The translations under genes were made by a program, and so were the position numbers. Below are positions 444 to 56,962 of a stretch of DNA of 56,962 nt, piece after piece; the stretch's first letter is position 1, and every line of letters begins with the position of its first letter. Location of the stretch: NCBI GenBank assembly GCA_044228875.1, contig JBGAUA010000006.1:1-56962 (forward strand), written 5' to 3'. Under the pieces are notes generated by a model, which searched no databases, had not been told where the DNA came from, and saw only the letters and a list, made by a program, of their open reading frames with translations. Source of the stretch: Anaerolineae bacterium. Its GTDB lineage: Bacteria > Chloroflexota > Anaerolineae > Epilineales > Epilineaceae.

Positions 444-3400
444 CTACCTACACGGCAAGCTCACCGCGATCCGCCGATAGATCGCCGCCAGATCCTCACC
501 CGTGGGAGCCAGGAAGGCGTAGCTGCCGTCGCGGGCCAGGGCGCGCAGGAAGGCGGTGTCGGCGTCGGCGCCCAGGCCCACCGTAAACACCGAGACATCC
601 GAGGCCCGAGCCAGGGCGGCGAGCTGCAAGGCCCGCGCCTCGGTGCCCTCGCTGGGGCGGCCATCGGTCAACAGCACCACCGCGCGGCGCGAGCCGTCGC
701 GGCCGCGCGATTCCAGCTCGCCCAAGGACTTCTCCAGGCCCAGGTCGATGCGCGTGCCGTTGCCCAGCACCAGTTGGTCCAGGCGGCGGCTGACGGCATC
801 GAAGTCCTGGGTGATCACGTACTCCCGCCGCGCCTGGCCGTCGAAGCTCACCAGGCCCACCCGGTCCGTGCGTGGCGCCATCTCGGTCAGCAGGCCGCGC
901 GCCGCGGCCACCGCGGCCGCCAGCTTGGTGCCCTGCATGGAAATGGAGCTGTCCAGGGCCAGCACCAGGTCAACCCCCGCCTGGCTCTTGACCAGACAGG
1001 CCTCCTTCAGGACCAGCGGCAGGTAGACCGTTCCCGGCACGGGAGGCGGCGTGGGCGAGGCCGGACCCAGCACCAGCACCTGGGGTACGGGGAAGTCAAA
1101 GCTGTAGCGCCGGCCGTCCGCCGTATAGCTGGCTGAGGCCAGACGGTTGGTGGGCAGGCGGCCCGCATGCAGCGGCGTCACCTTGAGGCTGAAGCGCAGC
1201 CCCCCCGCCGGCGCCACCGGCAACTGCCACGTCACCGAGCTGCTGTCCTGGGCGGCGGCAGGCGGCTGGATCGAGGCCGGGTCCAGGCGCACATCGGTGC
1301 TTGCCTCGTCGCGCACCGTCAGGTCAGTGGCAACCACCTCACCCACCGTTCCGCTGAGCTGGCTGTAGATGGCGTTCAGCTGGTCCGCCGATGGGGCGAA
1401 AAAGTAGCGCTCGGGCCCGCCGGCCATCGTCACGAGCAGCTCCGTGACCACGTCGTCGCCGAGGCCGACGACGTATACCAGCGCGCCCCGGCCCCGTGCG
1501 CGGGCCGCCGTGCGCAAGGCGTCGATATAGGGCTGGCCCTCGCGGGTGGGTTTGCCGTCCGTCATCAGGAGCAGAACCGGCATGGCCCCTGGCCGGCCGG
1601 CCTCCGCCAGGTGGTCCAGGGCCCGCTCCATGGCCGTGCCGATATCTGTGCTGCCGTCGGAGCGGATGCTGTCCAGGACGGCGCGCAAGGCCGCGCCGTC
1701 CCCGGTCAGGGGCTGGTCCAGCGACACCAGGTCTGAGAAGGAGACCAGGCCGGCGCGGTGGCGCGTGAGGTCCAGCTGGGAGACGAAGCGACTGGCCGCC
1801 GCCCGCGCCGCGTCCAGCTTGAGGCCGCTCATCGAACTGGAGCGGTCCAGCACCAGCATGATGTCCGCCTGCCGCTGCGTACCCGGCCGGCATTGGATGT
1901 CCAGGCCCAGCTCGATGGACACCGATTCCCCGAGGGTGACGATGTCCGGCGCGGCGCGCTTGCTGCCCGTCACCGTGCAGGGCGGCGTGGCCGGTGGGGT
2001 GGCCGTGGGCGGCGGGCCGCCCCCGGCCGGGTCGTAGACGAAGATGGACTCCGACGCCGCGTCGATGGCGTAGAGGCGCCCGCCGGCGCCGGCGGCGATG
2101 TCGCGCAACCTCACGTGGTCGCGGCCGGGCGCCGGGTCCGCCTGGATGAGGCCCAGCGGGGCGCCCGCGGCATTGAAGGCTGCGATCCGCCCGTCGGCCC
2201 GGAGGACATGGACGGTCCCGTCGGGTGCCACGGTGATGCGCTCGCCGCCCTGGTCGGGGGCGATCTCCCAGCCGCCGATGCGACGGCCCGTGGCGGCCTC
2301 GAAGCGGTGGACCAGGCGGTCGGCGCCGCCCACGCCCCAGAGCGAGCCGTCGGGTCCCCGGTCCAGGTCGTTCAACCAGCCGTAGGGCGCGTCGGCGGGG
2401 CGATGGGTCCGGATGGGGTCGCGCCGCGACGGATCCTGGTCGAAGACCGTCAGCTGGCGGCGCATGGCGTCGGTGGCGTAGACCGCGCCGCCGTCGGCGG
2501 CCAGGCCCAGGCCGCTCAGGCAGTCGCAGGCCTTGTCCCACACCCGTGCACCCGCGGCCGTCAGCTTGCGCAAGCCCACCGCGCCCTGCACTGGGGCCGA
2601 GGCCACATAGACCGTCCCGTCAGCCGCCACGGTCAGGTCTTCACCGCCGCCCAGGTCCAGCACAGCGTTCGGGCGGCCGTCGGCAGCCGCCAGGCGGCGG
2701 ACCGCGCCGAGACCCGCGTCGATGATCAGCACCGAGCCGTCCGGCGCCACATCCAGAGCGGCGGGCGACAGGAAGCTTGAATGGTCCAAGGGCCGGGCCA
2801 TGCTGGCGGCCAGCAGGCGGCCGCCGCCCAGATCAAGCTGCCGCAGGCCTTGGCGGCCGTCGGGGGATCCGCTGCCGCTGGTGATGGCCAGGCGCGAGCC
2901 GCCCACCGCCAGGCCACGTGCCGGGGCGAAGGACTCCCCGGCCGGCGGCAGGTCGGCTTGGCGGTCACCAGCGGCGCCGAAGACGGCGACGCGGTCGAGG
3001 ATCCCGCCGGCCACATCCGAGGGGTACAACACCAGCAGGCGACCCGTGGCGGCATCCGCGTCTACGGCGCGGGCCCCGTTCAAAGGCAGCACCCGGTCCA
3101 CCGGCAGCCCGCCGGCGCTGAAGACCTGCAGGCGGCCGTTGCCCGCGTCCACCACGGCGACGCGGCCGTCCGGCATGACCGCCAGGTCCTCCGGGTACTC
3201 CATCTGTCCCGTCGAGGAACCGGTGTCGCCCCAGCCGCCGAGCCAGGCGCCGCTGGGGCTGAAGCGGTCGATGAAGCCCCAGGGCAGCCGGCTGAGCACG
3301 TAGACCTCGCCGCTGCCGGGCGCCACCGCCACGGCATGCGGTGCGAAGCCGAAGTTGGGTCCGCCGGAGCGCCACTGCCCGACGGGGCTGCCGTTGAGAC

Positions 3401-3821
3401 GGAAGATGGCCACGCGGCGGTTGCCGCTGTCCACCACGTAGACGCGGTCGCGGCCCAGGTCAACGGCCAGATCCCGCGGGGCGCGCAACGCGGCGACCCC
3501 GTCGCCGCGCCCCCCGAAGCTGCTCAGGACCGTGCCAGAGGCATCGATGGTCACCACCCGGTCATGGCCCGTGTCGGCCACCAGGAAGCTGCCGCCGGCA
3601 CCGGCGGCCACGCCGCCGGGGTCCAACAGGCTCTCCGGCGCATGGCCGCCGCTCCAGACGGCGCTGCGCGACCAGGACTGGCCGCCCGATTGCGCACGCA
3701 GCGCTGTCGCGGGGCCTTCGGGGGCCGCGGCGAGCGTCAGGCCGAGAGCGGCGAGTAGGAGCGACAGGGCGCCGGGGCGCGGTGACGGAGGTGACAGGGC
3801 TTCGTGGGCAGGTGGCATCAT
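444..3821 (-). CDS. Secreted NHL-repeat beta-propeller / split Ig-like / double VWA protein (about 1125 aa)
   Basis: ATG 3821 with GAGGA upstream and a signal peptide (LSLLLAALGLTLAAA). NHL repeats (VADTGHDRV, VVDSGNRRV, VVDAGNGRLQ). Two MIDAS-complete VWA domains (DRSSSM..T..TDG; DSSISM..T..TDG), a PT-rich linker and the VYLPLVLK motif. Confidence 0.85.
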   Translation of the reverse strand: MMPPAHEALSPPSPRPGALSLLLAALGLTLAAAPEGPATALRAQSGGQSWSRSAVWSGGHAPESLLDPGGVAAGAGGSFLVADTGHDRVVTIDASGTVLSSFGGRGDGVAALRAPRDLAVDLGRDRVYVVDSGNRRVAIFRLNGSPVGQWRSGGPNFGFAPHAVAVAPGSGEVYVLSRLPWGFIDRFSPSGAWLGGWGDTGSSTGQMEYPEDLAVMPDGRVAVVDAGNGRLQVFSAGGLPVDRVLPLNGARAVDADAATGRLLVLYPSDVAGGILDRVAVFGAAGDRQADLPPAGESFAPARGLAVGGSRLAITSGSGSPDGRQGLRQLDLGGGRLLAASMARPLDHSSFLSPAALDVAPDGSVLIIDAGLGAVRRLAAADGRPNAVLDLGGGEDLTVAADGTVYVASAPVQGAVGLRKLTAAGARVWDKACDCLSGLGLAADGGAVYATDAMRRQLTVFDQDPSRRDPIRTHRPADAPYGWLNDLDRGPDGSLWGVGGADRLVHRFEAATGRRIGGWEIAPDQGGERITVAPDGTVHVLRADGRIAAFNAAGAPLGLIQADPAPGRDHVRLRDIAAGAGGRLYAIDAASESIFVYDPAGGGPPPTATPPATPPCTVTGSKRAAPDIVTLGESVSIELGLDIQCRPGTQRQADIMLVLDRSSSMSGLKLDAARAAASRFVSQLDLTRHRAGLVSFSDLVSLDQPLTGDGAALRAVLDSIRSDGSTDIGTAMERALDHLAEAGRPGAMPVLLLMTDGKPTREGQPYIDALRTAARARGRGALVYVVGLGDDVVTELLVTMAGGPERYFFAPSADQLNAIYSQLSGTVGEVVATDLTVRDEASTDVRLDPASIQPPAAAQDSSSVTWQLPVAPAGGLRFSLKVTPLHAGRLPTNRLASASYTADGRRYSFDFPVPQVLVLGPASPTPPPVPGTVYLPLVLKEACLVKSQAGVDLVLALDSSISMQGTKLAAAVAAARGLLTEMAPRTDRVGLVSFDGQARREYVITQDFDAVSRRLDQLVLGNGTRIDLGLEKSLGELESRGRDGSRRAVVLLTDGRPSEGTEARALQLAALARASDVSVFTVGLGADADTAFLRALARDGSYAFLAPTGEDLAAIYRRIAVSLPCR

Positions 3822-3883
3822 GGCTTCTGGTTCCTCGGGACAGGGGGCGTGGGACAAGGTAGAACGCTGTGGCGCGATGGGGG

Positions 3884-5480: not shown

Positions 5481-5484
<4 letters not shown>
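4255..5484 (-). CDS. Glycosyltransferase family 4
   Basis: Starts MRLVFLG at ATG 5484, ATGA overlap with the glmS stop. GHEVTVI, KLLELLAAGMPVVASAVGQSAEVIVDGQSGRLV. Confidence 0.9.
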
Positions 5485-7331
<1,847 letters not shown>

Positions 7332-9541: not shown

Positions 9542-9555
9542 GAGCTAACGATAGC

Positions 9556-19443: not shown

Positions 19444-20682
19444 TCACGGCCATTGGCCGCGCCCGACGAGGGGAAAGACGATGCGGGCGCGGTCCTCCCC
19501 GCCTTCGGGCGTCGGTGTGGGCTCGGTTGCCTGCCCGGTCGGCGCGGCCGTGGGATCGGGACCCTCGCCCGGCGTCGGCGTGGGCGTGCGGGTGGCCGGC
19601 CGCGGCGTGGGCGTGACCGAGGGAGGCAGTGTGGCCGTTGGCGACGGCGTGGCGGAGGCCGGCGGGGGCAAGGCGGTCACGGTGGCGGGATGGGCGCCGC
19701 GGCGGCGCTGCATCTGCTCCCATTCCACCACACCCCGTTGGCCGCCGGTGGGGCTGAGGCGCTGGATGGACCACCGAGGCCGCACCTCGATGATGGCGTA
19801 GAGGCTGCCATCCGGTCCGGTGGCCAGCTTCCAGCAGCGCCCGGTTACCTTGAAGCCGCCGTCGGGGCTGCCGTCGGGCTTGAAGCGCTCGACGCGGCTG
19901 TTGTCGCCCACGCCCTCGTGTACGGGGATGAAGATCCGCCCGTCGGGCGCCACGGCGATGCCCGTGGGCACCGCCGGGAGCTTCCAGGATCCGGCCAGTC
20001 CACCGTCGATGCTGTAGCGCATCACGCGAGGGTCGTCGGGATCGTCGTAGACCACGTAGCGGATGCCGTCCGCGCCGAGGGCCATGTCCAGGGCCCAGGG
20101 CTCGATGACCATGCGGTCCAGGGCTGCGCCGCCGGGGCTGTAGCGCCGGATCTCGGTGTAGCCGGCATCACCGGCGATCAGAATGTCGATGGTGCCGTCC
20201 TTCTCGACGCCGATCGAGCGCACGTAGTCCACCTCGCCGAGCCCGAGATCCCAGGCCACCACCTGTTCCATGGCATCGCTCAGACGGCTGATGAGGCTGA
20301 GTGCGGGCAGGTCCGGCTGATCGGGGATGGGAATGGACAGGTCCATGACCATCCCGCCGCCGGGCATCCCCGCCAGATCGTGGATGTCACCGATGCTCAT
20401 GAAGCCCCCTCGCCAGGCCAGGCCGGAGGAGTACCGATCCAGCCCGATCTGTCCGGTGTCCGTGCCCATGGTCACCCAGACGTCGCCGACCTCGTCCGCC
20501 GCCAGATTGGTGGGGAAGTCCGGCACCGCTGCATGGGCCGCCGGCGGCGTTGACGGTGACGCGCCCGACCAAGGCCATCCACCGAGGAAGATCAGGGCGC
20601 ATCCGACGGCCAGGACGGTCAGCCCGCGTCCGCGGTCGGCAACGGTCGTCGTCATGCGGGGGTCCTCCGGCGTCTGCCTCAT
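19444..20682 (-). CDS. Secreted beta-propeller (NHL/SMP-30-like) protein with PT-rich tail
   Basis: GGAGG RBS, signal peptide, repeats such as PTGIAVAPDGRIFI and LATGPDGSLY, TP-rich linker, C-terminal RIVFPLVGR. Confidence 0.75.
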   Translation of the reverse strand: MRQTPEDPRMTTTVADRGRGLTVLAVGCALIFLGGWPWSGASPSTPPAAHAAVPDFPTNLAADEVGDVWVTMGTDTGQIGLDRYSSGLAWRGGFMSIGDIHDLAGMPGGGMVMDLSIPIPDQPDLPALSLISRLSDAMEQVVAWDLGLGEVDYVRSIGVEKDGTIDILIAGDAGYTEIRRYSPGGAALDRMVIEPWALDMALGADGIRYVVYDDPDDPRVMRYSIDGGLAGSWKLPAVPTGIAVAPDGRIFIPVHEGVGDNSRVERFKPDGSPDGGFKVTGRCWKLATGPDGSLYAIIEVRPRWSIQRLSPTGGQRGVVEWEQMQRRRGAHPATVTALPPPASATPSPTATLPPSVTPTPRPATRTPTPTPGEGPDPTAAPTGQATEPTPTPEGGEDRARIVFPLVGRGQWP

Positions 20683-34602: not shown

Positions 34603-35144
34603 CAGTCCATCTCGATGCTGGCCAGATCCGCGGTCACCAGGCCGACCGCCATCAGGTCCGGCGCGGAGCCCCATTCCAGACGGTAGCGCTGCTCGTAACG
34701 CTCACTGCGCAGGGTGTCGCGGTCCATTCGCGGCCGCCGCACCCGGAAGACCCAGCCGGGATAGGCATCGACGCCGGCCGAAACCGGACCGGCCTGGCGC
34801 GCGATCTCGTCGTCGCTCAAGCGATCCCAGAGGCAACCGGTCGCGCAAGCCATCTCAGCTCCGGCGCCCCGTTGGGCCACCAGGATCGCGCCGAAGGAAA
34901 GGGCATAGGCCAGGCCGATCAGTGAACCCAGGGAGGCATAGGCATGACGCCGCCGCAGCCAGCCGGAGGGCCGGGGCGGTGTCAGCTCCTGCTCGATGCC
35001 TCGCCAGACCCGCCCACCGGGAGCGGCGTTGCGCGCCTCGTCCAAGCCACCCTTGAGCCAGACGGCCAGGTCGTCGTGACGCCAGCGCTCAACGCCCAGC
35101 CCGCCGGCGGGATCGCCGGGCCGATCAGTGGCTGAGGGGCGCAT
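34602..35144 (-). CDS. Putative membrane anti-sigma factor
   Basis: Overlaps the 3' end of the ECF sigma gene. APGGRVWRGIEQEL motif followed by one TM helix. Confidence 0.6.
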   Translation of the reverse strand: MRPSATDRPGDPAGGLGVERWRHDDLAVWLKGGLDEARNAAPGGRVWRGIEQELTPPRPSGWLRRRHAYASLGSLIGLAYALSFGAILVAQRGAGAEMACATGCLWDRLSDDEIARQAGPVSAGVDAYPGWVFRVRRPRMDRDTLRSERYEQRYRLEWGSAPDLMAVGLVTADLASIEMD

Positions 35145-35793
35145 GGGCCAACGTCTCCGAAAACGGCAGGTCCACCCGAGTGCCGGCTTCCATGATCTCC
35201 CGCAAGCGCACGCGGCCGTAATGCAAGCGGGACTTGACGGTGCCGGCCGGGAGCGCCAGGGTGGCGGCGATCTCGTGCAGGTCCATGTCCTGCAAGTAGA
35301 AGAGGATGACCACGATGCGCTGTTTGAAGGGCAGCAGATTGATGGCCTCGGCGATGCCCAGAGCCTGATCGCCATCCACGGTCTGGCGCTCGGGCGAGGC
35401 CGAGCCGGACGGCAGCCGTCGCAACAGGTCGTCATCGGCGCTGGATTCGTGGCGACGGCGGGCGCACCAGTCGTAGCACAGGTTGATCACGATGCGGTGC
35501 AGCCAGGGCCTGAGGCTGGCACCCGCCGGGAGCTGCACGCGCTCGAGGTAGCGGTAGGCGCGCAGGAAGGTCTCCTGAAGCAACTCCTCCGCCGCGCCGC
35601 GCTCATGCGTGATGGCCACCGCGGTGCGGAAGAGCGGCTCTTTGTATCGGCCATACAGAAGGGCGAAGGCGTCGCGGTCGCCGCGGAGCACCGCGGCCAC
35701 GCAGGTTGCGTCGTCGGGCGCCGCACCGGACGGGTCGGAGGGGTTGGGGGACATCTCGCGCGCCGCTGTAGTCATGATCATCCCTCTGCTCAT
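35125..35793 (-). CDS. ECF RNA polymerase sigma factor
   Basis: GDRDAFALL, AEELLQETFLRAY, WLHRIVINLCYD, EIAATLALPAGTVKSRLHYGR. Alternative start 35775. Confidence 0.93.
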   Translation of the reverse strand: MSRGMIMTTAAREMSPNPSDPSGAAPDDATCVAAVLRGDRDAFALLYGRYKEPLFRTAVAITHERGAAEELLQETFLRAYRYLERVQLPAGASLRPWLHRIVINLCYDWCARRRHESSADDDLLRRLPSGSASPERQTVDGDQALGIAEAINLLPFKQRIVVILFYLQDMDLHEIAATLALPAGTVKSRLHYGRVRLREIMEAGTRVDLPFSETLAHAPLSH

Positions 35794-35987
35794 GAGGTCA
35801 CTATAGCATGGGTTCCGACCGGGGCGGCCGCCCGTTGCGACGGCCGACAGGTCCGGTCCAATCTGTCTTGACCTCCATAACGGCGACGGCCGCGCCGCGG
35901 TTCACCGGCGGCGGGCGGACCGTCTTCCGGGTCACGACGCGGTCACACCTTTCCCCTCTCCACCGTCACAATGATACGATGAACGTC

Positions 35988-36548
35988 ATGACCCTCGATC
36001 CACGATCCGCCGAGGCTCGCGATCGGGCGCCCACCTTGGGTGATCCGGCGCTTGAGTCGCTGTTTGTGGGTCTCGTCCGCGACTACCAGCAGCGGATCTT
36101 CAACTACCTGCTGCGGATCGTGGGCGACACCGGGGCGGCTGAGGACCTCTGCCAGGAGGTCTACCTGCGCGCCTACCGCTCACTGGCGCGCCTCGACAGC
36201 GCGGCCAACCATCGCGCCTGGCTGTATCGCATCGCCACCAACGCGGCCATGGACGAGCTGCGCCGCCGCAAGCGGCGACCATGGGACGTCCTGGGCCTGA
36301 CCAACCTGCTGCGGGCTCCCAGCCCCAGCGAGGACGAGCGACTGAACCGGGTGGTCCTTGACCAGGCCATGCTCAGGATCGGCGCCGAGCACCGCGCGGT
36401 GCTGTCCTTGTTCGAGTACGCCGGCCTTACGGCGCCGCAGGTCGCGGAGGTGCTCGGCATCACGCCCGAGGCGGCGCGCAAGCGGCGCCAGCGGGCTCGC
36501 GAGGCTCTGGCAGCCGTTCTGGGCGTCGAAAGAGACGGTGGCGCGTGA
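35988..36548 (+). CDS. ECF RNA polymerase sigma factor
   Basis: AEDLCQEVYLRAY, WLYRIATNAAMDELRRR, QVAEVLGITPEAARKRRQRAR. TGATACGAT ends 7 nt before ATG 35988. Confidence 0.92.
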   Translation: MTLDPRSAEARDRAPTLGDPALESLFVGLVRDYQQRIFNYLLRIVGDTGAAEDLCQEVYLRAYRSLARLDSAANHRAWLYRIATNAAMDELRRRKRRPWDVLGLTNLLRAPSPSEDERLNRVVLDQAMLRIGAEHRAVLSLFEYAGLTAPQVAEVLGITPEAARKRRQRAREALAAVLGVERDGGA

Positions 36549-37756
36549 GCTGCGGTCGCGTTCAGGCCCTCATGGGCGTCCCCGCCGAACTGGACCGGGC
36601 GGAGCGGCTGCTCCTGTCGCACCACCTTCGGGACTGCGCGGCCTGCCGCGAAGCGATGTTCGAGGAGGAGCGCGTGCGCGCCTTCCTGGCCGGCCTGCCG
36701 GAGCTGCCTGTTCCTTCGCGCCTGATGGCCGACCTGATGGCCATTCCCACGGCCGCCCAGGCGCGGCCCGCCGTCGCCGTGGGGCGCTGGCTGCTGGGCC
36801 TGGGGCTGGCCATCGGTCTGTGGGGTCTGGCCGGACGGCTGATCGGCCGCCCGATCCCCCCGCCGGCGGCTCCGGCGCCGGTCGCCGCCCCTTCGCGCCT
36901 TGCCGCCTCCATGGCCACCGCGACGGCGTCGACCGCCGGGCCGCGCGAGGCGACGAACCGGGCTACCCCGGTCGGCGTCGCGGAAGCAGCCGCCTCCGAT
37001 CGCCCTCCGACCGACCGACCGCCGCGCCCGGTAGCGCCGCGCCCGGTAGGGGTGGAGGGCGGCCGATCGCGGACTGCCGCGCCCGATTCCCTGTCCGGCG
37101 CCGATGCGTCTGACGCCGGTTCCGACAGCGCACCGAACCAGAGCCAGCCGTCCGAGCCGCCGCCGGTGCCTTCGGACGAGCCGGCGCCGACCGCCCCGCC
37201 CTTGCCCCGACCATCGGACGCGCCGCCGGTCTGCATCGAAGTGGCCTTCGAGGCCTTCCTGGATCTGGCCGGCGACGGCGGACGCGCCTGCCCCGGCTGC
37301 GACGGCCGCTTCGACGAGGCCGATGCGGCCGCCGCGGCCGCCACCGGCCTCACCTTGCCCGGCGCGGCGGTCTACTGGATCGACGCCACCGGCGATAACG
37401 GCGCGGAAGGCATCCTCCTGACCGGTGAAGGGGCGATCGCCCGCACGGGTAGCCAGACGCTCTGCGGAACGATGCCGATCACCGTCGGCCTGTCCATCGG
37501 CCTGTCGGAGCTCTTCGATCTCTGCCCGATCACGCCCGCCCGGCCCACCTTGACCGTCCAGGACAGCGGCAGCACTGTTCGCTGGGCCGTCGGTCGGTCT
37601 GAATGCCCCGTTCCGACCGCGACGCCGCCCGATGGCGCCCCCCAGGAGACTCCGGCCGCGCCTCAGCCCACCAGCGCACCCGCGGCCGCTCCCGATCCGC
37701 TGCTCAGCGAGCAGCCCCCTTCAGCCACCCTCGGGACGCGAGGCCACCAGCCGTGA
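36545..37756 (+). CDS. Zinc-binding anti-sigma (ZAS) membrane protein with extracellular Cys-rich domain
   Basis: GTGA overlap with the sigma gene, HLRDCAAC (HxxxCxxC), TM, Pro/Ala linker, C-terminal domain FLDLAGDG..CPGCDGRFD. Confidence 0.8.
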   Translation: MSCGRVQALMGVPAELDRAERLLLSHHLRDCAACREAMFEEERVRAFLAGLPELPVPSRLMADLMAIPTAAQARPAVAVGRWLLGLGLAIGLWGLAGRLIGRPIPPPAAPAPVAAPSRLAASMATATASTAGPREATNRATPVGVAEAAASDRPPTDRPPRPVAPRPVGVEGGRSRTAAPDSLSGADASDAGSDSAPNQSQPSEPPPVPSDEPAPTAPPLPRPSDAPPVCIEVAFEAFLDLAGDGGRACPGCDGRFDEADAAAAAATGLTLPGAAVYWIDATGDNGAEGILLTGEGAIARTGSQTLCGTMPITVGLSIGLSELFDLCPITPARPTLTVQDSGSTVRWAVGRSECPVPTATPPDGAPQETPAAPQPTSAPAAAPDPLLSEQPPSATLGTRGHQP

Positions 37757-37851: not shown

Positions 37852-39021
37852 ATGATCCCGACCGTCGGCCTCACCTCACGCGTCCATCGGCTCGCGATCG
37901 CGGCCTTGTGGTCGTTCGTGCTGGTGCCGGGCCTGGGGCTTATCCTGCTCCTGGCGGCCGACGCGAAGACATTGCATGCGCAGGCTACGGGCGCGCCCAG
38001 CCCTTGCCGCCTGGACGTCCGCCTGGATCTCAGCAACAAGCTGGCCTGTCCGCTTGACACCGTCACGCTCACCCTGAGCATCCAGGCTTCCTGTCCCATG
38101 GAAGCGGATGGTCGCCGGAGCGAGGTGGTGGGGGTCGAGCTGGAAAACCCGCTGGCGGCCAACCTGCGTGGCAGCAGCGGGACGCTCGGGGGCGAGGGTG
38201 AATCCGAAGGCATCCACAGCCTGGGTCCGGTGCCGGGCGAAGGGCTTCAGTGGCAGCTGCGCCTCCTGGCACTGCGGAGTGGCGTCTACCCTGTGGGACA
38301 GGACATGCGGCTCCGGCTGCGCGACGACCGCGGACGAAGCGCCGAAGCCTCCGTCCGCGATTCGATTGACCTGGTGGTCAACCCCTGCGGCTATGGCGGC
38401 GAAGACCGGCTGCGACAGGTCTTCCTGCCGCTGGCGCAGCATCCGAGATGCCAGGTCAGCCAGGAGGCGGCCGATATCGTCCTGGCCATCGACCGGTCTA
38501 CGAGCATGGGCAGGACGGGGGTAGCCATGACCCTGTCCCAGGCACGGTCCTTCATCGAGAGCGTCAACCTGGAACGCGATCGGGTGGCCCTGCTGGCTTT
38601 CGACCGCGAGCCACAGCTGATCAGCGGCCTCACCCAGGATCGCGCCCTGCTCCTGGCCGCCTTGCAGGGCGTCGGCCCCGGCCGCCTGACGGCGATCGAC
38701 CGGGCCATCGAGGCGGGGATGGGCATCCTGGGAGCGGGCGGTGACGGCCGCCGCCGGGTGCTGGCCCTGGTCTCCGACGGCCATCAGACCGGCCTCGGCG
38801 ATGAAGCCGCGGTTCGCGCCGCGGCGCTTCGCGCCCGGCGCTCGGGCATCCGCATCCTCACCCTGGCTGTTGACGGCGAGGACGTGGACCCCAACTGGAA
38901 GCTTCTGCGTGACCTGACGGAGAACGCCTCCCGCAGCATCCGGCTGAACAGCGGCGCCGACGAGGCCTCCCTCAGCCGCGCCTATCGCGAGTTGGCCGAA
39001 CTGTCCGGCTGTCTCGACTGA
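37852..39021 (+). CDS. Secreted Ig-like + VWA domain protein
   Basis: Signal/TM segment, Cys-bracketed beta domain, VFLPLAQH motif, VWA DRSTSM..T..SDG. TGGTATCCT extended -10 at 37821-37829. Confidence 0.82.
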   Translation: MIPTVGLTSRVHRLAIAALWSFVLVPGLGLILLLAADAKTLHAQATGAPSPCRLDVRLDLSNKLACPLDTVTLTLSIQASCPMEADGRRSEVVGVELENPLAANLRGSSGTLGGEGESEGIHSLGPVPGEGLQWQLRLLALRSGVYPVGQDMRLRLRDDRGRSAEASVRDSIDLVVNPCGYGGEDRLRQVFLPLAQHPRCQVSQEAADIVLAIDRSTSMGRTGVAMTLSQARSFIESVNLERDRVALLAFDREPQLISGLTQDRALLLAALQGVGPGRLTAIDRAIEAGMGILGAGGDGRRRVLALVSDGHQTGLGDEAAVRAAALRARRSGIRILTLAVDGEDVDPNWKLLRDLTENASRSIRLNSGADEASLSRAYRELAELSGCLD

Positions 39022-39047: not shown

Positions 39048-39818
39048 CTAACGTGGGCCGTGAGGCCCGAAGTAGCGCTGCGGCGCCACCGCCGGCTGCC
39101 CGGCCGTGAAGAGGCGGATGAGCAGCAGGCCGGCGATGAAACCGCCGATATGGGCGGCATAGGCGATACCGTCTCCCCCGCCCCGCAATGAGGCGTAACC
39201 GCTGAGCAACTGGAAGGCGAACCACAGCCCAACAGCGGCGACGGCCGGCACATCCACCACCGAGCGGAGCACGAGCATGCGCACGCGGCGGTGGGGATAG
39301 AGCATCAGGTAGGCGCCCTGCACGCCGGAGATGGCGCCGGAGGCGCCCAGGCTGGGGATGGTGGGATCCCCGCCCAAGACAGCGGTGCTGAAGATGAAAG
39401 ACAGGGATGCGATCACCCCGACGACGAGGTAGAAGAGCAGGTAGCGCCCGTGTCCCAGCCGGTTCTCGATGTTGTCGCCGAAGATCCACAGGTACAGCAT
39501 GTTGCCGAAGAGATGGGCGATGCCGCCGTGCATGAACAGGCTGGCCAGAAGCGTGAGGTAGACGGAAACGGGCGTGGGCTGCAAGCCCGGCACGATGAAG
39601 GTCTGGCCGGAAGCCGGATCCCGGACCGTCTGGTCTGCCGTCACCAGGTCGCGTCCGCCGAGGATCTCCGCCGGCACGGTGGACCAGGCCATGGTGAAAC
39701 GCTGGTCGGCCCCCATCCCTTGGAAGACCACGAAGACCAGGACGCAGACGGCGATCAAGCCGAGGTTGACCAGCGGGAAGATGACGCGATCGCTGTTGTC
39801 GTCGCCGAGAGGCATCAT
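39048..39818 (-). CDS. Rhomboid-family intramembrane serine protease
   Basis: SLFMHGGIAHLFGNMLYLWIFGDNIE, GASGAI (Ser), AHIGGF (His). Confidence 0.95.
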   Translation of the reverse strand: MMPLGDDNSDRVIFPLVNLGLIAVCVLVFVVFQGMGADQRFTMAWSTVPAEILGGRDLVTADQTVRDPASGQTFIVPGLQPTPVSVYLTLLASLFMHGGIAHLFGNMLYLWIFGDNIENRLGHGRYLLFYLVVGVIASLSFIFSTAVLGGDPTIPSLGASGAISGVQGAYLMLYPHRRVRMLVLRSVVDVPAVAAVGLWFAFQLLSGYASLRGGGDGIAYAAHIGGFIAGLLLIRLFTAGQPAVAPQRYFGPHGPR

Positions 39819-41312: not shown

Positions 41313-44300
41313 TCAGAGTAGCGGCGACGCCTCCGCCGCCCGCGGGTCAGCGGACGGAGCCGGCGCAGGCTCAACCGGCGGTGGCGCCGGCGCTTCGGCC
41401 GGCGCTGGCCGGTCCTGGGCATCCCCGCCGGTCAGGCGGTCCAGGAGGCTGTAGATCACCGGTACGATCACCAGGGTGAGAACGGTGGAGGCCAGGAGGC
41501 CGCCGATCACCGTCGTGGCCAGCTCCGAGGCGATGAGCGCGCCCTCCGTGAACCCGATGGCTTGCGGGATCAAGGCGATGATGGTGGCGATTGCGGTCAT
41601 GACGATGGGTCTGAGGCGGTGCCGGCCGCCCTCCATGAGCGCCGTCTTGGCATCCATCCCCTCTGCGCGGTACTGCTGCACCAGATCCACCAGCACGATG
41701 GCGTTGGTGGTGACGATGCCGATCAGCATCATCATGCCGATGAGGCTCGACATGCTGATGGCCCGGTCCGTGATCGCCAGGGCCGCCAGGGCGCCCGAGA
41801 CGGCGAAGGGCAGGCTGAAGAGGATGGTGAACGGGTGCACCAATGAGCCGAAGGTCAGCACCATGATCAGGTAGACGATGAGGATCGAGATGGGCAGGGC
41901 GATCAGCATGTCGCGGAAGCCTTCACGCTGCTGGCGGCTCTCGGCTCCGGCGCCCACTGTCACGTCCTCGTCCAGATCCTCGTCCTGCACCACCTCCGCG
42001 ATGATCTTGTCCGCCTGGTCCAGGACGCCGAAGGTGTCCTGGGTGGTGATCTCGCCGCTGATGACCACGGCGCGCTCGCCGTCGATGCGCGTGACCTGCA
42101 CCGGCCCGGGTCCCTCGGTGATCGTGGCCACCGCCTCCAGCGGCACGGCGCCCTGCGGGCCGTTGATCACCAAGGTCCGCAGCCCGTCCACCTCGCCGAC
42201 CATGTCCGACGGGTAGCGGGCGAAGACCTCGAGGGTCTCCGTGGTGTCACCGTCCACCAGTTCCACGTCGCCCAGATCGGCGCCCTCGATCATCTCGCGG
42301 AGGGCCAGCCCCACCTGGATGGTGCTCAGACCCTTGGCCACGGCCTTTGCCGGGTCCACCTGCACCTGGATCACCGAGCGGGCTTCGCTGAGGTTGCTGG
42401 TCAGGTTGATGATGGGCAGTTCGGTGAACTTGGGGTTCTCCGTCCAGTTGTCCTCGTCTTCAAGGGCCTCCAGAATGCGGTCGTTGGCGTCGCGCAGAGC
42501 GGCGGCGTCGTCGCTCTTGATCTGCAGGTCGTAACGGCTGCCCTGCGGGCCGCCGCCTGAACCGGCCGTGACCGTGAAGACCACATCGTCCTCGTCGGCG
42601 ATCATGCCGTCGTCCACCAGGTCCCCGCGCAAGCCGTCGAGCTCGTCGCGCAGCTCGGCGGCCATGGCCTGGGCGTCTACCTTCGGCGCGAACCATTCGG
42701 CCAGGAGCCCCCCGGAGCCTTCATCCGCGGCCTCCTCGTCGCCTTCGTCCTCGGACGTCGCGCCTCCTGCCTCCGCCTTGTCGATGGAGGCGAAGAAGTA
42801 GGCCCTGGCGCTGTCACCGCCCGAGAACTGGCCGAAGAACTGGCTGCCGCGGCCCACGGTCGTCTCCACGGTGTCGACGCCGTCCCAGTCCATCAGCAGA
42901 TCCTCCACGTCCTGAGACACCGCGTCGGTCGTGGCGAGATCGGTACCCGGCGGCAGGGCCATCTCCACTTGGATGGCGGCCTCGCCGAAGCTGGGCAGGA
43001 AGGTCTTGTCCACCAGCCCCACGAGCGACAGGCTGCCGACGAAGAAGACGAGGGCCATCAGGAGGGTCAGGAAACGGTGCTCGAGGGCCCAGCGCAGGGT
43101 CGGGGTGTACAGGCGCAGGAGCAGGCCCTCGTGGTCCTCGGGCAGGTTGTCGCGGCGCATCAGCCGCCCCGCCACCAGGGGCACCACGGTCAGGGCGACC
43201 AGGAGGCTGGCCAGCAAGGCATAGGAGGCCGTGAAGGCGAAGGGCTTGAAGAACTCGCTGGTGATGCCGCCGACCAGGCCCAAAGGCAGGAACACCGCCA
43301 CCGTCACCAGGGTGGCCGCGGTGATGGCGGTGCTCACCTCGCGGGTGCCGCGGATGACGGCGTCCCGCACCGGCTCGCCGGCCTGGATGTGGCGGTAGAT
43401 GTTCTCGATCACCACGATGGCATCGTCCACCACGCGGCCGATGGCGATGGTGAGGCCGGCCAGCGACAGGATGTTGAGGGTCAGCCCTTGCATGCGCATG
43501 AGGAGCAGGGCCACGACGATGGAGATGGGGATGCTGATGGCCGTGACCAAGGTGGAGCGCACGGAGAAGTTGAGGAAGATGAGGATGACCAGGACGGCGA
43601 ACAGGCCGCCCAGGATGCCCTCGTTGCGCACGCCCTTCAGGCTGTCCTTGATGAAGGTGCCCTGCTCGAAGACCACATTGAACTTCAGGTCCTCGTCCAG
43701 GTCGCCGCTCTCCTCCAGTTCCGTCAGCCTGGCCAGCACGGCATCGACCACCGACACGGTGTTGGCGCTCTGGTCCTTGTAGAGGATGAGGCTCAGCGAC
43801 GGATCGCCGTCGGTGCGGTTGAAGGTCTCGGCAGGCTCCAACGCGCGGCTGACCTCGGCCACATCGCCCACGCGGACCGTGCCGTCTTCGGCCTGCATCA
43901 GGCGGCGACCGCCCGCCATGGGCGACCGCGTATCGCTCAGGCGGCGCAGGACGGCCGTGCGCAGGCTCGAGGGAAGAGCGCTGAGGACGGACGCCGGGAT
44001 CCGGCGCAGGACCGTCTCCGGGATCTGGTCGATCGCGGCGGGGTCGAGTCTGTCCAGCAGATCGGGCGCCGCGCGCAAGGCGCCGTCCACTGCCGCGGGA
44101 TCCAGGTTGCCCAGCAAGGCCACGACGGCTTCCTGGTCCAAGCGCGCCAGGGCCTCCGGCGCGGCTGCCACCAAGCCCGCGATCAGGTCGGGATCAAGGG
44201 CTCCCAGGAGCTCCGGTGAGCCGCGGAGCAGTTCGTCCACCAAGATCGGGTCCAACTGGCTCACCAGGTCCGGCGCAGCGGACAGCAGACCGTTGATCAC

Positions 44301-45824
44301 CGAAGGGTCCAACTGCGACAGCAGCTGGGGCGCCGACTGGAGCACGGCCTCGATGGTGGCCGGGTCCAAGGCCCGCGCCAGATCGGGGTTGGCGCCGAGG
44401 ATGTCGGAGACGACCTGGGGATCCAGTTCGCCGAGGAGTTCCGGCGCGGCCCGCAGCAGCTGGTCCAGCATCGCTGGGTCCAGTTGGGCCAGGAGTTCCG
44501 GCGCGGCCCTGACCAAGGGCTCGATGGACGCGGAATCCTGTTCGGCGATCAGTCCGGCCAGGCCGCCGGCGGCCTGACCGGACGCCGCGGCCGCACGGGC
44601 GGACGTACCGCCTACCTCCGGCGCGGCGGACGCCACGGTGGGCTCGGCATCGTCGGAGGAACCGTCGTCGGCGGGCGCGTCCAGGCGTTCGCGCAGCCGC
44701 CGGCGGATGTCCGCCGGCAGGGCGTCCAGAACCGCCTCGGTCACCGGCGACGGGCCGCCCGGCGGCACCTGCCGGATGACGTCGTCGGCGATCTGCTGCA
44801 GGAGGTCCGGGCGGGCCGCCTGCAGGGTCCTCACGGCGTCCGGCGTCAGATCACGCGTGGTGGCATAGCCCAGGGCCACCACCTCCGCCGGCAGCCTGAT
44901 GGCCAGGAGGGTGCGGCTCTGTCGCGAGGACGTGCGCTCCGGCGTTGCGGTGGCCGTCCTGACGCGGGCGCCGGTTGAGGGACGGTCGGCAGCGGGGGTC
45001 GGGCTCGAAGCCTCGGGGTCGCCGGCGCCGGGAGCCTGTCCGCCGGGAGCGCCGCCGGGCGGTCCACCCTGGCCACCGCCGAGGGCCAGGTTGGCCAGGT
45101 CGGTCTCGCTGCTCAGGCGATGGACCACCTGCAGGGGGATGGTCTTGCCGTCCACTTCCAGGCTGCCGGCCGGGAAGCTGAGGTCGTTGGCCTGCAGGGC
45201 GCCCTTGATGGCACCCAGGCTCTGGTTTCTCGCGTTCAGCCGGACAGGATCGATGTCGATGAAGATCTTTTCCTCACGACCGCCGGCCAGGGCCACGCTG
45301 CTGACGCCCTCGATGCCCTCCAACTCCTCCAGCACCTGGTCCTTGACGATGCGCTGCAGCTCTGCCGTATCCAGATCGCCGTCGGCGCCGCGCACGGAGG
45401 CCTGGACCACGGGCAGGTCGCTGAAGCTGAACAGGACCACCTGCGGGTCCTCGGCGTCTTCGGGCAACGCCACGTCCTTCAGCTCGGCCTCGATGGCATC
45501 ACGCAATTCGTCCTGGGTGGTGCCGTACTCGGCTCTCAGAGTGGTGGCGGCGAAGCTCTCCGACGCGGAGGAACTGACCTCCACCACCTGCACATCGGTG
45601 ATGCCCTCCAAGGCCGACTCGATGGGTTCGACGACCGAGTTGGTGATCTCATCGGCCGAGGCGCCGGGCCACAAGGTGACCACCGTGGCCTGCGGGAACT
45701 CCACCTGGGGCACCAACTCCTGGTTGAGGTCGGCGGCGGCGAAGACGCCACCGGCCAGGAGGAAGAAGGTGATCAACAGGGTGATCGACGGGCGCTCCAA
45801 GGCCAAGCGTGTCAAACGGTTCAT
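41313..45824 (-). CDS. RND efflux transporter permease (AcrB/SwrC type) with large insertion, 1503 aa
   Basis: GAGGAG RBS, WPGASADEI, GRVVDDAIVVIENI, GIVTTNAIVLVD, RLRPIVMT. About 400 extra residues in the first extracytoplasmic loop. Confidence 0.95.
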   Translation of the reverse strand: MNRLTRLALERPSITLLITFFLLAGGVFAAADLNQELVPQVEFPQATVVTLWPGASADEITNSVVEPIESALEGITDVQVVEVSSSASESFAATTLRAEYGTTQDELRDAIEAELKDVALPEDAEDPQVVLFSFSDLPVVQASVRGADGDLDTAELQRIVKDQVLEELEGIEGVSSVALAGGREEKIFIDIDPVRLNARNQSLGAIKGALQANDLSFPAGSLEVDGKTIPLQVVHRLSSETDLANLALGGGQGGPPGGAPGGQAPGAGDPEASSPTPAADRPSTGARVRTATATPERTSSRQSRTLLAIRLPAEVVALGYATTRDLTPDAVRTLQAARPDLLQQIADDVIRQVPPGGPSPVTEAVLDALPADIRRRLRERLDAPADDGSSDDAEPTVASAAPEVGGTSARAAAASGQAAGGLAGLIAEQDSASIEPLVRAAPELLAQLDPAMLDQLLRAAPELLGELDPQVVSDILGANPDLARALDPATIEAVLQSAPQLLSQLDPSVINGLLSAAPDLVSQLDPILVDELLRGSPELLGALDPDLIAGLVAAAPEALARLDQEAVVALLGNLDPAAVDGALRAAPDLLDRLDPAAIDQIPETVLRRIPASVLSALPSSLRTAVLRRLSDTRSPMAGGRRLMQAEDGTVRVGDVAEVSRALEPAETFNRTDGDPSLSLILYKDQSANTVSVVDAVLARLTELEESGDLDEDLKFNVVFEQGTFIKDSLKGVRNEGILGGLFAVLVILIFLNFSVRSTLVTAISIPISIVVALLLMRMQGLTLNILSLAGLTIAIGRVVDDAIVVIENIYRHIQAGEPVRDAVIRGTREVSTAITAATLVTVAVFLPLGLVGGITSEFFKPFAFTASYALLASLLVALTVVPLVAGRLMRRDNLPEDHEGLLLRLYTPTLRWALEHRFLTLLMALVFFVGSLSLVGLVDKTFLPSFGEAAIQVEMALPPGTDLATTDAVSQDVEDLLMDWDGVDTVETTVGRGSQFFGQFSGGDSARAYFFASIDKAEAGGATSEDEGDEEAADEGSGGLLAEWFAPKVDAQAMAAELRDELDGLRGDLVDDGMIADEDDVVFTVTAGSGGGPQGSRYDLQIKSDDAAALRDANDRILEALEDEDNWTENPKFTELPIINLTSNLSEARSVIQVQVDPAKAVAKGLSTIQVGLALREMIEGADLGDVELVDGDTTETLEVFARYPSDMVGEVDGLRTLVINGPQGAVPLEAVATITEGPGPVQVTRIDGERAVVISGEITTQDTFGVLDQADKIIAEVVQDEDLDEDVTVGAGAESRQQREGFRDMLIALPISILIVYLIMVLTFGSLVHPFTILFSLPFAVSGALAALAITDRAISMSSLIGMMMLIGIVTTNAIVLVDLVQQYRAEGMDAKTALMEGGRHRLRPIVMTAIATIIALIPQAIGFTEGALIASELATTVIGGLLASTVLTLVIVPVIYSLLDRLTGGDAQDRPAPAEAPAPPPVEPAPAPSADPRAAEASPLL
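44025..44507 (-). repeat. Intragenic 57-nt / 19-aa tandem repeats in the RND transporter
   Basis: Seven consecutive units like AAPELLAQLDPAMLDQLLR, plus two partial units. Confidence 0.9.
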
Positions 45825-46583: not shown

Positions 46584-48257
<1,674 letters not shown>

Positions 48258-52347: not shown

Positions 52348-52358
52348 TGCCGCCCCCC

Positions 52359-52778: not shown

Positions 52779-52823
52779 GATCGGATACTCCACGTTGGGT
52801 GTAGGGTCTGATTGGGTGATGGT

Positions 52824-53162: not shown

Positions 53163-53250
53163 GACGAGCGGGCTCCCGCTGGATCCCATCCCCGCTATCC
53201 GCCGGCGGCCGGTCGGCCTGCCGGAAATGGATCGGGGCTAAGGCGGTGGA

Positions 53251-53583: not shown

Positions 53584-53595
53584 CGCTAGGAAAGT

Positions 53596-53633
53596 CCTTT
53601 CCATGGGTTTGCCCCCGGTATGGGGCAGAAAGG
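53596..53633 (-). ncRNA. S6:S18 ribosomal protein leader (autoregulatory)
   Basis: CCUUUC-UGCCCC-loop-GGGGCA-AACCCAUG-GAAAGG: two stems with a CCC-containing 3' bulge. The outer stem sequesters the AAGG SD of rpsF. Confidence 0.65.
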
Positions 53634-53892
53634 TAGGTCTGTCGCGGTCATCGCTGCGACCGGACCCAGAACCTGGAGATTAATAGCACGGGAGCGGCGA
53701 AGGACCAAGCCGACGCCCAGAAGAGACCGCCCGGCGGTCCTGCGCCCCGCAGGCGGCCATCCGCGCCAGCGCACCGTAACACCTGCGACTGCTGAGCGGT
53801 TAATCGTATGCTAACCGCGCGACGACCGACGACCATGGGGCGCCGCGCTTGTTGCCATATCGGCGTCGTCAAACGCCTGGGGGCTCGAATCC

Positions 53893-56800
53893 ATGAATGC
53901 TCCGCACCGGCTGTCTCGGTTGTCACGGCCGCGCGCTCGCGCCGCCGGGCTCAGCGCTGTCCTCGCGTTGGGCTTTCTCGCCGCGATCTCCGCAGCCGGC
54001 GAGCGCCCCCTGCGTGCCCAACCGGCGCCGCCCGCACTCAACTACCGCCTGCAGGCCACCTGGGAGAGCCAGCCGCCAGCTACCCATGTGGCCCTGGAAT
54101 GGCCGGAAGGGCATGTCAGCGGTGGTCTGGGGCAGAACCCCGAAAGTCGCGAGATCCTGGTCACCGACCTGAGCGACCACAGCCTGCGCGTCTACGCCCC
54201 CGACGGCCGTTTCCTGCGCCGCCTGGCCGGCTTCGGCATCGGCCCCGGCCAGCTGGCCGAACCTCGCGATGTGGACGGCCTGCCCGGCGGGCGCCTGGCG
54301 GTGGCCGACACGGGCAACAACCGCGTGCAGGTGCTGGCGGCCGACGGCGCGCCCCTGGCCAGCTGGGCGGTCAACGGGCCGCAGGGCCTGGAGGTGGTGC
54401 GCGACTGGATCTACGTCGTCTCCCGCCCCGACCGGCGGGTCTACGGCTTCAACGCCGATGGCGTCCTGCAGCGCAGCATCGACCTGAGCGGCCGCCTGAG
54501 CGCGCCGGAAGGCCTGGCCTACCGCGGCGACATGACCGGCGGCGGCGCGGGCGAACGCCCTACGGCCACCTTCGTGGTGGCCGACCCTCAGAGCGGCCAG
54601 GCCCTGGGCGTGCGCGACGAGGGCACGCAGCAGGTGACCCTCCTCGCCGCCCCGCCGCGCATGGTCATCGCCGCTCCCTGGTCCTACCAGGACGCACAGT
54701 ACTGGCTGATCGGCGCGGAGGCCAAGGGGCTGGTGATCAGCCATCCCAGCGGCGAGGTCGCGGCCGAACTGACCTTTGATCGCGTCGCCGACATCGAAAC
54801 CCTGTCCGACGGACCGGTGCTGTTGGCGGCAGGCTCGCAGGGCCTGGCCCTGGTGCCGGACCTGGCCTACGTCCTGCGGCAGGAGACCGACACCTTCGGG
54901 CGCCTGCTGGCCCCGCGGCGCATCGGGGTGGGAGCGGACGTGGTGCTGGGCGACGGGGCGCCGCGGGCCCAGATCTGGAGCCTGAGCGGCCATCCGCTGG
55001 CGGACCTGCGCTTCGACGCCGGCGACCCGCCCACGGTGCCGGAAGAAGACATCGCCGCCCCGGCGGACGTGGCGGCCGCCGGCCCCTGGCGCTTCGCGCT
55101 GTGGCGCAGCGGTCGCATCCGCCGCCTGGACCCAGCCACGGGTCTGGCGCCCACCTGGGCGCCGGAGGCCGGCGGAAGCCGCTGGATGGTGGGCCTGGGC
55201 GCGGCGGGCGACAGTCTGGCCAGCTTCGACCTGGCCAACCAGCAGGTGGTCTTCTTCGACCCCAACCTGCAGCCCACGGGCTTCTGGCCCACGGCGGCCG
55301 CCGGCTTCCTGGGCGCCGCGGACCTGGCGCTCTCGGCCGAGCGGGTGTTCATCATCGACCGCTACCGTTACCGCCTGACGGTCTGGAGTCGCGACGGACA
55401 GCTGCTGGCCCAGCAGACGATGGCCGCCCATCCGGAGCGGGTAGCCGCCGACGCCCAGGGCCGGGCCTTCGTCCTCACCCGCTCCGGCTGGGTGCTGGCC
55501 TTCGACGCCGCCGGCGCCCCCTTGGGCGCCTGGCCGGTGAAGGCGGGCGACGCCGAGCCCTCCGACCTGGCCCTGGACGGCGCGGGCCTGCTCTACGTGG
55601 CCGACGCCAAGGGCTTCGTGCAGGTCTTCGCCCCCGACACGGGCACGCCCGCCGGCCTGCCGCAGTTCGGCGGCGGGGGGCGCTGCGGGGCCATCGCCTT
55701 CAAGAGCGCGCAGCCCACGGAGGTGGAGCTTGGCCAGCCGGTGGAGGTGCAGCTGGTGGTCGACGGCAGCTGCCCCAGCGAGGACCAGAACGTGGACGTG
55801 GTCCTGACCCTGGACCGCTCGGGCTCGATGTACGGCCGCAAGATGCAGAGCGCACGGGACGGGGCCATCAACTTCGTCCTGAACGTGGACGGGCCGCGCT
55901 CGCGGGTGGGGGTGACCACCTTCTCCAACGGCGCGGAGGAGGTGGTGCCCTTGACGGAGGAGCGGGTGCGGGCCATCCGCGGCATCGCCGGCGTGGTGGC
56001 GGGCGGCAGCACGAACATCGTCGAGGGCCTGAGCCAGGCGCGGCAGACGATGAACCGGGCGGTGGTGCGCCCGGACCTGACCCGGGTGATCATCTTCCTG
56101 TCGGATGGGCGCCATTCCATCGGCGCGGTGCCCATCCGCCAGCTGGACGACGTGATCGCGGCCACCCGCAGTGACGGCATCCGCGTCTTCACGATCGGCC
56201 TGGGCGGCGACGCCGACCGCGACACGCTCCGCCGCATGGCCACGGACGCCACGCATTTCTACGTCAGCCCCACGGAGGACGAGCTGGGCGAGATCTACCA
56301 GCAGATCGCCGGGCGCATCGCGGCCACGCCGCTGTTCAAGGCGGTGGTGGTGAAGGACCGGGTGCCGGGCAACATGCAGTTCCTGCCGGGCACGGGTCGC
56401 CCCGTCGAGCCTGCCTGGGACGAGGCCTCGCGCACCCTCAGCTGGGATCTGGGCATGGTGCCGGAGCCGGGCTTCCGCCTGACCTACCAGCTGCTGCCCC
56501 TGCGCCCGGGGCTCTGGCCGACGAACGTGGACGCCTGGACGGAGCACGTGGACGGCCGCGACGCGCCGGGCCGGCTGGACTTCCCGGTGCCCTATGTGCG
56601 GATCAAGGGCTTCCTGCCCACCGATACGCCCACGCCAACGGACACGCCGAGCGCGACAGCCACGCCGACGGACACGCCCTCGCCCACGGTGACGCCGACT
56701 GCCACCCCCACCCTGACGCCGACGAGCAGCCCCACCCCCACGCACACCCTCACCGCCACGCCCAGCCCGCGGCCCAGCCGCACGCCCACGCGGCGGCCCA

Positions 56801-56962
56801 GGCCCATCTTCCTGCCCTTCGCCATGGTGGACCGCTGCACGCCGCAGACGCGGCTGAGCGACATCGTCCTGGTGCTGGACAGCAGCTCCAGCATGGAGTT
56901 CCCCACCCATGCGGGCGGCCCGAAGAAGCGCGAGGCGATGGTGGCGGCGGCCTCGGCCTTCC
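53893..56962 (+). CDS. Secreted NHL-repeat / split Ig-like / double VWA protein (partial, runs off the window; absent from the ORF track)
   Basis: Frame 1 from ATG 53893: signal peptide ([20 protein letters not shown]), NHL ([11 protein letters not shown]), VWA DRSGSM at 55813, PT linker, IFLPFAMV, second VWA DSSSSM. No stop before the window end. Confidence 0.88.

Follow-up and report, generated by a model that had tools for sequence, protein, structure and literature searches.

A stretch of 56,962 nucleotides from an Anaerolineae bacterium (assembly GCA_044228875.1, contig JBGAUA010000006.1, here contig C282), hereafter called the window, encodes six predicted exported proteins that carry the same short peptide around a Leu-Pro core. 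The six sites are true copies of a short tag that occurs far beyond chance. The tag is identical in kind to the YLP box of NCBIfam, so that the motif itself is already known; it marks exported proteins of one Chloroflexota lineage, and its closest homologues are named Anaerolineae or Ardenticatenales. By analogy with other anchors, we propose with a probability of about 0.45 that the box is a near-terminal envelope-retention tag, which would be recognized non-covalently by a lineage-specific component of the envelope.

Abundance of the box in the genome

The genome (G000) comprises 3.9 Mb in 315 contigs, on which a simple codon-bias caller predicts 2963 genes. A strict regular expression for the box finds 477 sites in their products, against 320 ± 12 in shuffled proteins. 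The excess is larger near the C-terminus, with 77 sites in the last 20 residues against 13.4 ± 3.2. A position-specific scoring matrix (PSSM), refined on C-terminal matches of the regular expression in the same genome and for this reason partly circular in its counts, unlike the expression itself, finds 183 sites at 12 bits or more against 16.2 in shuffles. Such a site lies within 25 residues of the C-terminus in 118 of the 2963 proteins, against 1.2 in shuffles; at 6 bits or more, 160 proteins are C-terminally tagged, against 14.4 ± 1.9. The C-terminal tag is carried by about 4% of the predicted proteins, or roughly one in 25, and about 6% carry a copy when internal and N-terminal ones are included.

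The C-terminus of a histidine kinase, GTTFHIWLPALRA (G000 C251_15580_17022), is a chance look-alike that passes both the strict regular expression and the 12-bit threshold of the matrix.

Consensus and position

The consensus of the 118 C-terminal sites spans eight to ten residues, R-[LVI]-[WYF]-L-P-x-[LV]-x-[RK], and is extended by the matrix to G/R-R-R-[LVI]-[WYF]-L-P-[LWR]-[LV]-x-[RK]. Leucine occupies position −1 in 107 of the 118 sites; the proline is fixed by the construction of the matrix. Position −2 is W, Y or F in 86 sites, with W, F, L and H as common there as Y. Basic residues flank the core upstream in 92 sites and downstream in 99, and acidic residues follow it in 33. The tail beyond position +4 is very short: 0-3 residues in 89 of 118 sites, 0-12 residues in 117.

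The box lies 4-7 residues before the C-terminus, a few residues past a likely signal-peptidase site, or directly ahead of a terminal, disulfide-stapled von Willebrand factor A (VWA) domain, and usually at the far end of a Pro/Thr-rich spacer. The 65 non-C-terminal sites of at least 12 bits consist of 22 that precede the VWA strand with the metal-ion-dependent adhesion site (MIDAS), 17 in the first 90 residues and 26 elsewhere. The three placements described for the window in the first-pass annotation, C-terminal, N-terminal and pre-VWA, are therefore found genome-wide. At the DNA level, the Pro and Leu of the box use varied synonymous codons and nothing is conserved past the stop codon; selection therefore acts on the peptide and not on a DNA repeat. 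Such a strict residue order, combined with the lineage variants described below, is as expected if the box co-evolved with a partner.

Cargo of the box

Outside the tag, the 118 tagged proteins form 84 clusters without detectable similarity to one another, in accordance with the earlier proposal of a tag portable across unrelated exported proteins. A crude predictor assigns a signal-like start to 93 of them, against 44% of all proteins. Contig ends truncate 10 of the other 25, and twin-arginine starts are seen in 2. Forty cluster representatives of the 84 were scanned with Pfam; 24 gave matches, 22 of them to secreted-type families: S8, M6, M14, M60, C25, trypsin, CotH, LVIVD, NHL, Kelch, alpha-2-macroglobulin (A2M), BNR and cupredoxin. 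The two others are PPDK-like and a molybdopterin oxidoreductase.

The 40 residues upstream of the tag contain at least 40% Pro, Thr or Ser in 54 of 118 tagged proteins, against 38 of 2331 other proteins. The pattern first proposed for the motif behaves as had been predicted: it occurs in 183 of 1307 signal-peptide-like proteins but in only 82 of the 1656 others (odds ratio 3.1, p 1.5e-17), and a Pro/Thr/Ser-rich stretch adjoins 74 of its 280 sites, against 2.4% of random positions.

The six copies of the window

All six listed peptides are present in the translations of six window genes, encoding P0001-P0004, P0007 and P0008, and each could be given exact coordinates and a PSSM score. A hydrophobic signal-like segment opens all six proteins, as their predicted secretion implied, and a Pro/Thr-rich stretch adjoins the box in five, the exception being P0007. 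Pfam identifies NHL propellers and VWA domains across P0001, P0003, P0007 and P0008; P0002 has a sub-threshold NHL match only and P0004 a weak beta-helix.

Two boxes are C-terminal. P0002 (19444-20682, minus strand) has a signal-like N-terminus, a weak NHL-like propeller, a 57-residue Pro/Thr-rich linker (19507-19677, minus) and the box IVFPLVGR (19459-19482, minus; 6.4 bits), with 8 residues from the Pro to the end and GQWP before the stop. P0003 (24575-26848, minus) has a signal peptide, NHL propellers, a 67-residue linker (24638-24838, minus) and the box IYVPRLLR (24584-24607, minus; 16.7 bits), with 6 residues from the Pro to the end and PR before the stop. The box of P0004 (27165-28757, plus strand) is N-terminal: LWLPALLS (27288-27311, plus; 18.1 bits) stands at residue 45, about 12 residues past the likely signal-peptidase site, and is followed by a 55-residue linker (27324-27488, plus) and a right-handed beta-helix.

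The remaining three boxes are internal and precede VWA domains. P0001 (444-3821, minus; reading frame open to 4268) consists of a signal peptide, an NHL propeller, a first VWA domain, a short Pro/Thr stretch, the box VYLPLVLK (1005-1028, minus; 18.9 bits) and a C-terminal, Cys-stapled second VWA domain. In P0007 (37852-39021, plus), the signal peptide and an Ig-like sandwich are followed by the box VFLPLAQH (38419-38442, plus; 8.2 bits), without a Pro/Thr linker and 15 residues ahead of the MIDAS Asp of a VWA domain enclosed by two Cys. P0008 (53893-56961, plus) has a signal peptide, an NHL region, a first VWA domain and a 63-residue linker (56611-56799, plus), then the box IFLPFAMV (56806-56829, plus; 7.0 bits) and a second VWA domain cut by the window end. 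The fixed spacing noted earlier for these three sites, LP-x6-C-x7/8-D[IL]VL, holds: it reads LP-x6-C-x8-DLVL in P0001 and LP-x6-C-x7-DIVL in P0007 and P0008.

The scores of the three weak sites (6.4-8.2 bits) are in the range of a chance match on urocanase (6.9 bits), and these sites are credible only through their context. That of P0002 is credible because it combines the 57-residue linker with a C-terminal position and is conserved in the same-genus orthologue, RARIVFPVVGRGSWP; that of P0007, because its L-P is invariant in 11 of 11 homologues. The urocanase peptide, LRIPMAERG at the C-terminus (46590-46613, minus), is a chance look-alike.

Boxes at the N-terminus and ahead of VWA domains

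Within the beta-helix family of P0004 the box occurs at either protein end. Among 120 homologues, 12 have a box of at least 10 bits past a signal-peptide end of the A-x-A-Q type, and 6 have it at the C-terminus instead. Several more N-terminal boxes, below the threshold, were recognized by eye among the closest 30 homologues. Elsewhere in the genome, two proteins have a box at both ends, past the signal peptide and at the C-terminus (G000 contigs C22, 24888-27008, minus, and C111, 34991-38713, plus).

The last 209 residues of P0001 were used as a query against 1.84 billion representatives and gave 253 matches below 1e-30. The box heads a widespread Cys-stapled C-terminal VWA module: it is found at 10 bits or more in 59 of the 150 best matches, and by eye in more, with 13, 15 or 17 residues between it and the MIDAS Asp in the terminal VWA domain. 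A Cys follows the box, and a second one lies within the last 12 residues in 17 of the 18 paralogous modules of the genome. In our reading of these sequences, the VWA domain would form a stapled insert, which would bring the box near the chain end.

The invariant residues of P0007 are L192 and P193. Its AlphaFold2 model, built on an 11-sequence alignment, shows residues 181-198 as coil with a predicted local distance difference test score (pLDDT) below 50, between the Ig-like sandwich and the VWA domain, whose first strand is formed by residues 207-214. The box appears there neither as a strand of the Ig-like or VWA fold nor as docked. The fixed spacing of 13, 15 or 17 residues to the MIDAS Asp leaves some packing against the VWA domain possible.

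Relation to the NCBIfam YLP box and other signals

In a lax-threshold scan against NCBIfam release 20, genome tails matched two models that carry the description 'YLP-box putative sorting motif-containing protein': the 10-position NF053834 'ultrashort_CTERM', with a cut-off of 10 bits, and the 11-position NF050076 'sort_motif_YLP', with a cut-off of 15. The tag had thus already been curated. The window site at 1005-1028 exceeds the NF053834 cut-off, with 12.9 bits in a six-frame search and 14.7 bits as a 20-residue peptide, and with 14.7 bits falls just below that of NF050076. Two tails elsewhere in the genome match the YLP-box models. The 20-residue peptides at 19459, 24584, 27288, 38419 and 56806 and most sampled genome tails have no reported match, HMMER filters dropping most matches above E ~0.1, so that weak ones would be missed. 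Only the canonical form YLPL[VL]x[RK] is caught by the NCBIfam models; the form of this lineage is more degenerate. As a genome profile, NF053834 proved unusable in six-frame searches, being too short to be specific alone: it found only 6 sites in the genome itself and matched 10 of 14 control genomes. Searches of titles and abstract openings, including the model names and typical peptide strings, returned no publication on the YLP box. The box has a database name, but the curated models are names only and leave it a putative sorting motif.

The curated box and the tag have in common the core Y-L-P-L-hydrophobic-x-R/K, the extreme C-terminal position and the absence of a transmembrane (TM) helix. 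They differ in that the box of this genome is also found at N-termini and before VWA domains. The ultrashort C-terminal form, with no TM helix after it, is seen in P0002, P0003 and the 118 tagged proteins, not in P0004 or at the three pre-VWA sites.

In agreement with the first-pass annotation, the TM helix, LPXTG and PEP features of sortase and exosortase signals are absent from the box. LPXTG signals resemble it in their L-P core at the end of a Pro/Thr-rich spacer, their occurrence in secreted proteins and the basic residues that follow. In contrast, the box shows no preference for T-G at +2/+3 among the 118 sites, lacks the hydrophobic segment of ~20 residues and can be N-terminal. PEP-CTERM (exosortase), PGF-CTERM (archaeosortase) and GlyGly-CTERM (rhombosortase) are likewise short motifs shared, within one lineage, by many unrelated exported proteins, often past a Thr-rich region, and on a comparable scale of tens to ~100 proteins per genome. 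These signals are exclusively C-terminal and continue into a TM helix and an Arg-rich basic tail, neither of which follows the box. In architecture, the box also resembles the N-terminal lipobox and the C-terminal dockerin of dockerin-cohesin pairs, as a terminal anchor joined to its cargo by a flexible linker; it differs in having no Cys for lipidation and in being 8 residues long, not a domain of ~60.

Conservation and spread among relatives

In a same-genus genome, the orthologues of P0002 and P0003 have retained the box, whereas their linkers have diverged. In two same-family homologues of P0003, at 40-42% identity, the box reads RLFLPRAYR. Among M14 peptidase homologues the C-terminal slot is exchanged: 18 of 120 end in a Pro/Thr linker and box. 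Many others end in a Ca-loop-like motif, D-x-N-x-x-G-x-G-D-G-x-I-D, which looks dockerin-like by eye, and some in nothing; the myxobacterial ones end directly after the domain. The dockerin reading of these alternative C-termini was rejected, as Pfam Dockerin_1 matched none of the four tested at E <= 0.001 and the resemblance is by eye only.

Variants of the tag in homologues include LYLP[LI][IV][VM]K and LLLP[IV]LADRxY. M14 homologues from another family of the same order (loci L167-L171, family f39) end in LLLP[IV]L[AM]D[RK]xY, with an acidic residue and without the flanking basic pair. This may be a lineage-specific form of the tag.

Tag density in relatives was estimated with the same matrix on 100-kb samples, which are small; the unpublished genome G038 contributes to none of the claims. 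The tag is dense in the genome's own family and sparse elsewhere in the phylum: per 100 kb we count 3.3 tags in the genome itself, 0, 3 and 2 in three same-genus samples, and 2, 2 and 1 in the same family. Samples of two same-order genomes of another family contain no credible tag. Those of sixteen further genomes of the phylum contain none either, barring two matches on short open reading frames (123 and 142 residues) judged spurious by eye; a looser regular expression yields one plausible LIFLPLIMH there. Profiling across genomes by DNA pattern (back-translated IUPAC, with or without the stop) was dropped, its counts in the genome itself being no better than those of reversed-pattern controls.

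Sortases, exosortases and candidate partners

About five classical LPXTG-like signals ([LM]P.TG, TM helix and basic tail, recognized by eye) coexist with the box, on contigs C66, C183, C245, C271 and C2. The genome encodes four sortases, one class-E-like and three class-F-like. Three of the four have lipoprotein-like N-termini, with a Cys past a hydrophobic stretch. It also encodes two exosortase-family proteins, a generic EpsH type and XrtO, neither of which could be linked to the box. A sortase was rejected as the cognate enzyme: all 41 relatives searched, tag-rich or tag-poor in the samples, have sortases (1-8 matches each), with no relation to tag density. Among the neighbours of tagged genes, up to two genes away on either side, no family shows convincing enrichment (best p 0.018, uncorrected, for a DUF1501 partner).

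Gene neighbourhood in the window

Between 4255 and 32762, genes of the envelope-polysaccharide type stand among the tagged NHL and beta-helix genes; they encode two GT4 glycosyltransferases, a GlmS-like SIS+GATase protein, a GT2, a hexapeptide acyltransferase and VanZ. The same region further holds an MBOAT O-acyltransferase gene followed by a DUF459 gene, with P0004 just upstream of the pair, an arrangement that we take to resemble polysaccharide-modifying loci.

A rhomboid-family protease gene (39048-39818, minus) is adjacent to P0007 and convergent with it. Its product matches the rhombosortase model weakly (23.6 bits, cut-off 84), and no link to the box was shown. Two divergent genes for sigma-70 factors of the extracytoplasmic function (ECF) type are found at 35125-35781 (minus) and 35979-36548 (plus). 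The second is followed, within the region 35125-37756, by the gene of a 394-residue protein without Pfam match and then by P0007; the arrangement may represent a sigma/anti-sigma unit. An RND transporter of the AcrB type (1503 residues; 41313-45824, minus) is longer than the 1021-position Pfam model, which it matches in three pieces. Toward its N-terminal part, a Gly/Pro/Ala-rich segment contains a short run rich in Pro, Thr and Ser (residues 273-284).

Discussion

The architecture suggests the following order of events. The tagged protein would be exported first; its exposed hydrophobic-Pro core would then be bound non-covalently by an envelope component specific to the lineage, most probably a protein receptor, and the Pro/Thr spacer would let the catalytic or adhesive domain reach outward. 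The docking tag of the first-pass annotation, a beta-strand that would attach its cargo to a common scaffold, is a plausible idea. Because the box works from either end and without a membrane-spanning segment, the cleave-and-transfer chemistry of sortase and exosortase signals is probably not used.

Several points weigh against this proposal. The case for envelope retention consists of the architecture of the tagged proteins and of their likeness to other anchored ones. Neither the neighbour enrichment nor the survey of sortases in relatives found a receptor, scaffold or enzyme, and the sole structural model gives the box no confident structure. The signal-peptide predictor over-calls, with its 44% of all proteins, and a few tagged proteins look cytoplasmic or false, such as the histidine-kinase C-terminus and the PPDK-like protein. 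In addition, the N-terminal class is small: of the 43 non-VWA internal sites, 17 fall in the first 90 residues, where an even distribution would place 23%. It is backed mainly by conservation in the one family of P0004.

It is possible, if rather unlikely, that the box is instead an enzyme-processed sorting signal, cleaved by a dedicated peptidase or transpeptidase that would form a covalent bond between the protein and a lipid, peptidoglycan or other wall polymer, in the manner of sortase, exosortase and archaeosortase. The NCBIfam names, 'putative sorting motif' and 'ultrashort_CTERM', point this way, as do the strict, LPXTG-like L-P core, the Pro/Thr-rich spacer that precedes it as wall-spanning regions precede LPXTG, and the four sortases and two exosortase-family proteins of the genome. 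However, the substrate has neither a TM helix nor a long tail by which it could be held at the membrane, and no conserved residue past the core is comparable to T-G. C-terminal acyl transfer leaves the N-terminal boxes of the same protein family unexplained; the classical LPXTG substrates are separate, and the sortases of all 41 relatives include those of genomes without tags in the samples.

A direct anchor at the lipid interface would dispense with a protein partner, the aromatic/Leu/Pro core inserting into the outer face of the cytoplasmic membrane and Arg/Lys resting on anionic head groups. Interfacial peptides rich in Arg, Trp and Pro resemble the box, whose basic flanks and frequent W/Y/F at −2 suit such a role; an anchor that functions in any orientation also fits use at either terminus. 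This is nonetheless unlikely. Bulk partitioning requires neither a fixed residue order nor a near-invariant L-P; acidic residues follow the core in more than a quarter of the sites (33 of 118), an Asp is present and the flanking basic pair absent in the related-family variant LLLP[IV]LADRxY, and six hydrophobic residues would give weak affinity only.

If the box were a maturation or release site, a protease would cut there to release N-terminally tagged proteins from the leader and to detach the terminal VWA domain from the rest. Internal copies do lie exactly at domain junctions past linkers, and N-terminal ones just past signal peptides. But of the 183 copies of at least 12 bits, 118 stand 4-7 residues ahead of the C-terminal end, so that a cut would take off next to nothing, and the paired Cys of 17 of 18 modules suggests that the box stays tied to the VWA domain; we regard such a site as very improbable. 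Finally, it is most improbable that the box is a product of chance, a translated DNA repeat or an ordinary structural strand of whichever fold carries it, despite the three window sites in the range of urocanase and the fixed spacing to the MIDAS strand in the VWA family, as the C-terminal excess over shuffles is ~100-fold, the box follows disordered linkers of 30-70 residues with no fold to belong to, it is low-confidence coil and not a VWA strand in the P0007 model, and its codon usage is varied with nothing conserved past the stop.

An envelope-retention tag of this kind could be taken further, in what is for now a doubtful extension, to surface display from either end without an enzyme: tag and Pro/Thr spacer would dock on a dedicated receptor and hold 4-6% of the proteome on a wall-bearing monoderm lineage. 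The disulfide-stapled VWA module would be a candidate receptor, because it carries the box in cis in ~22-26 proteins of the genome, a fusion that hints at an interaction between box and module.

How Chloroflexota retain secreted enzymes and adhesins at their surface is poorly understood, and here one eight-residue tag marks many peptidases, propellers and adhesin-like proteins. To the curated YLP box we add its use at the N-terminus and from either end, the Cys-stapled VWA module, its family-dense spread, and its coexistence with LPXTG without a TM helix of its own. If the tag suffices for display, it would be a very small handle for engineering surface display, and to find its partner is a tractable question.

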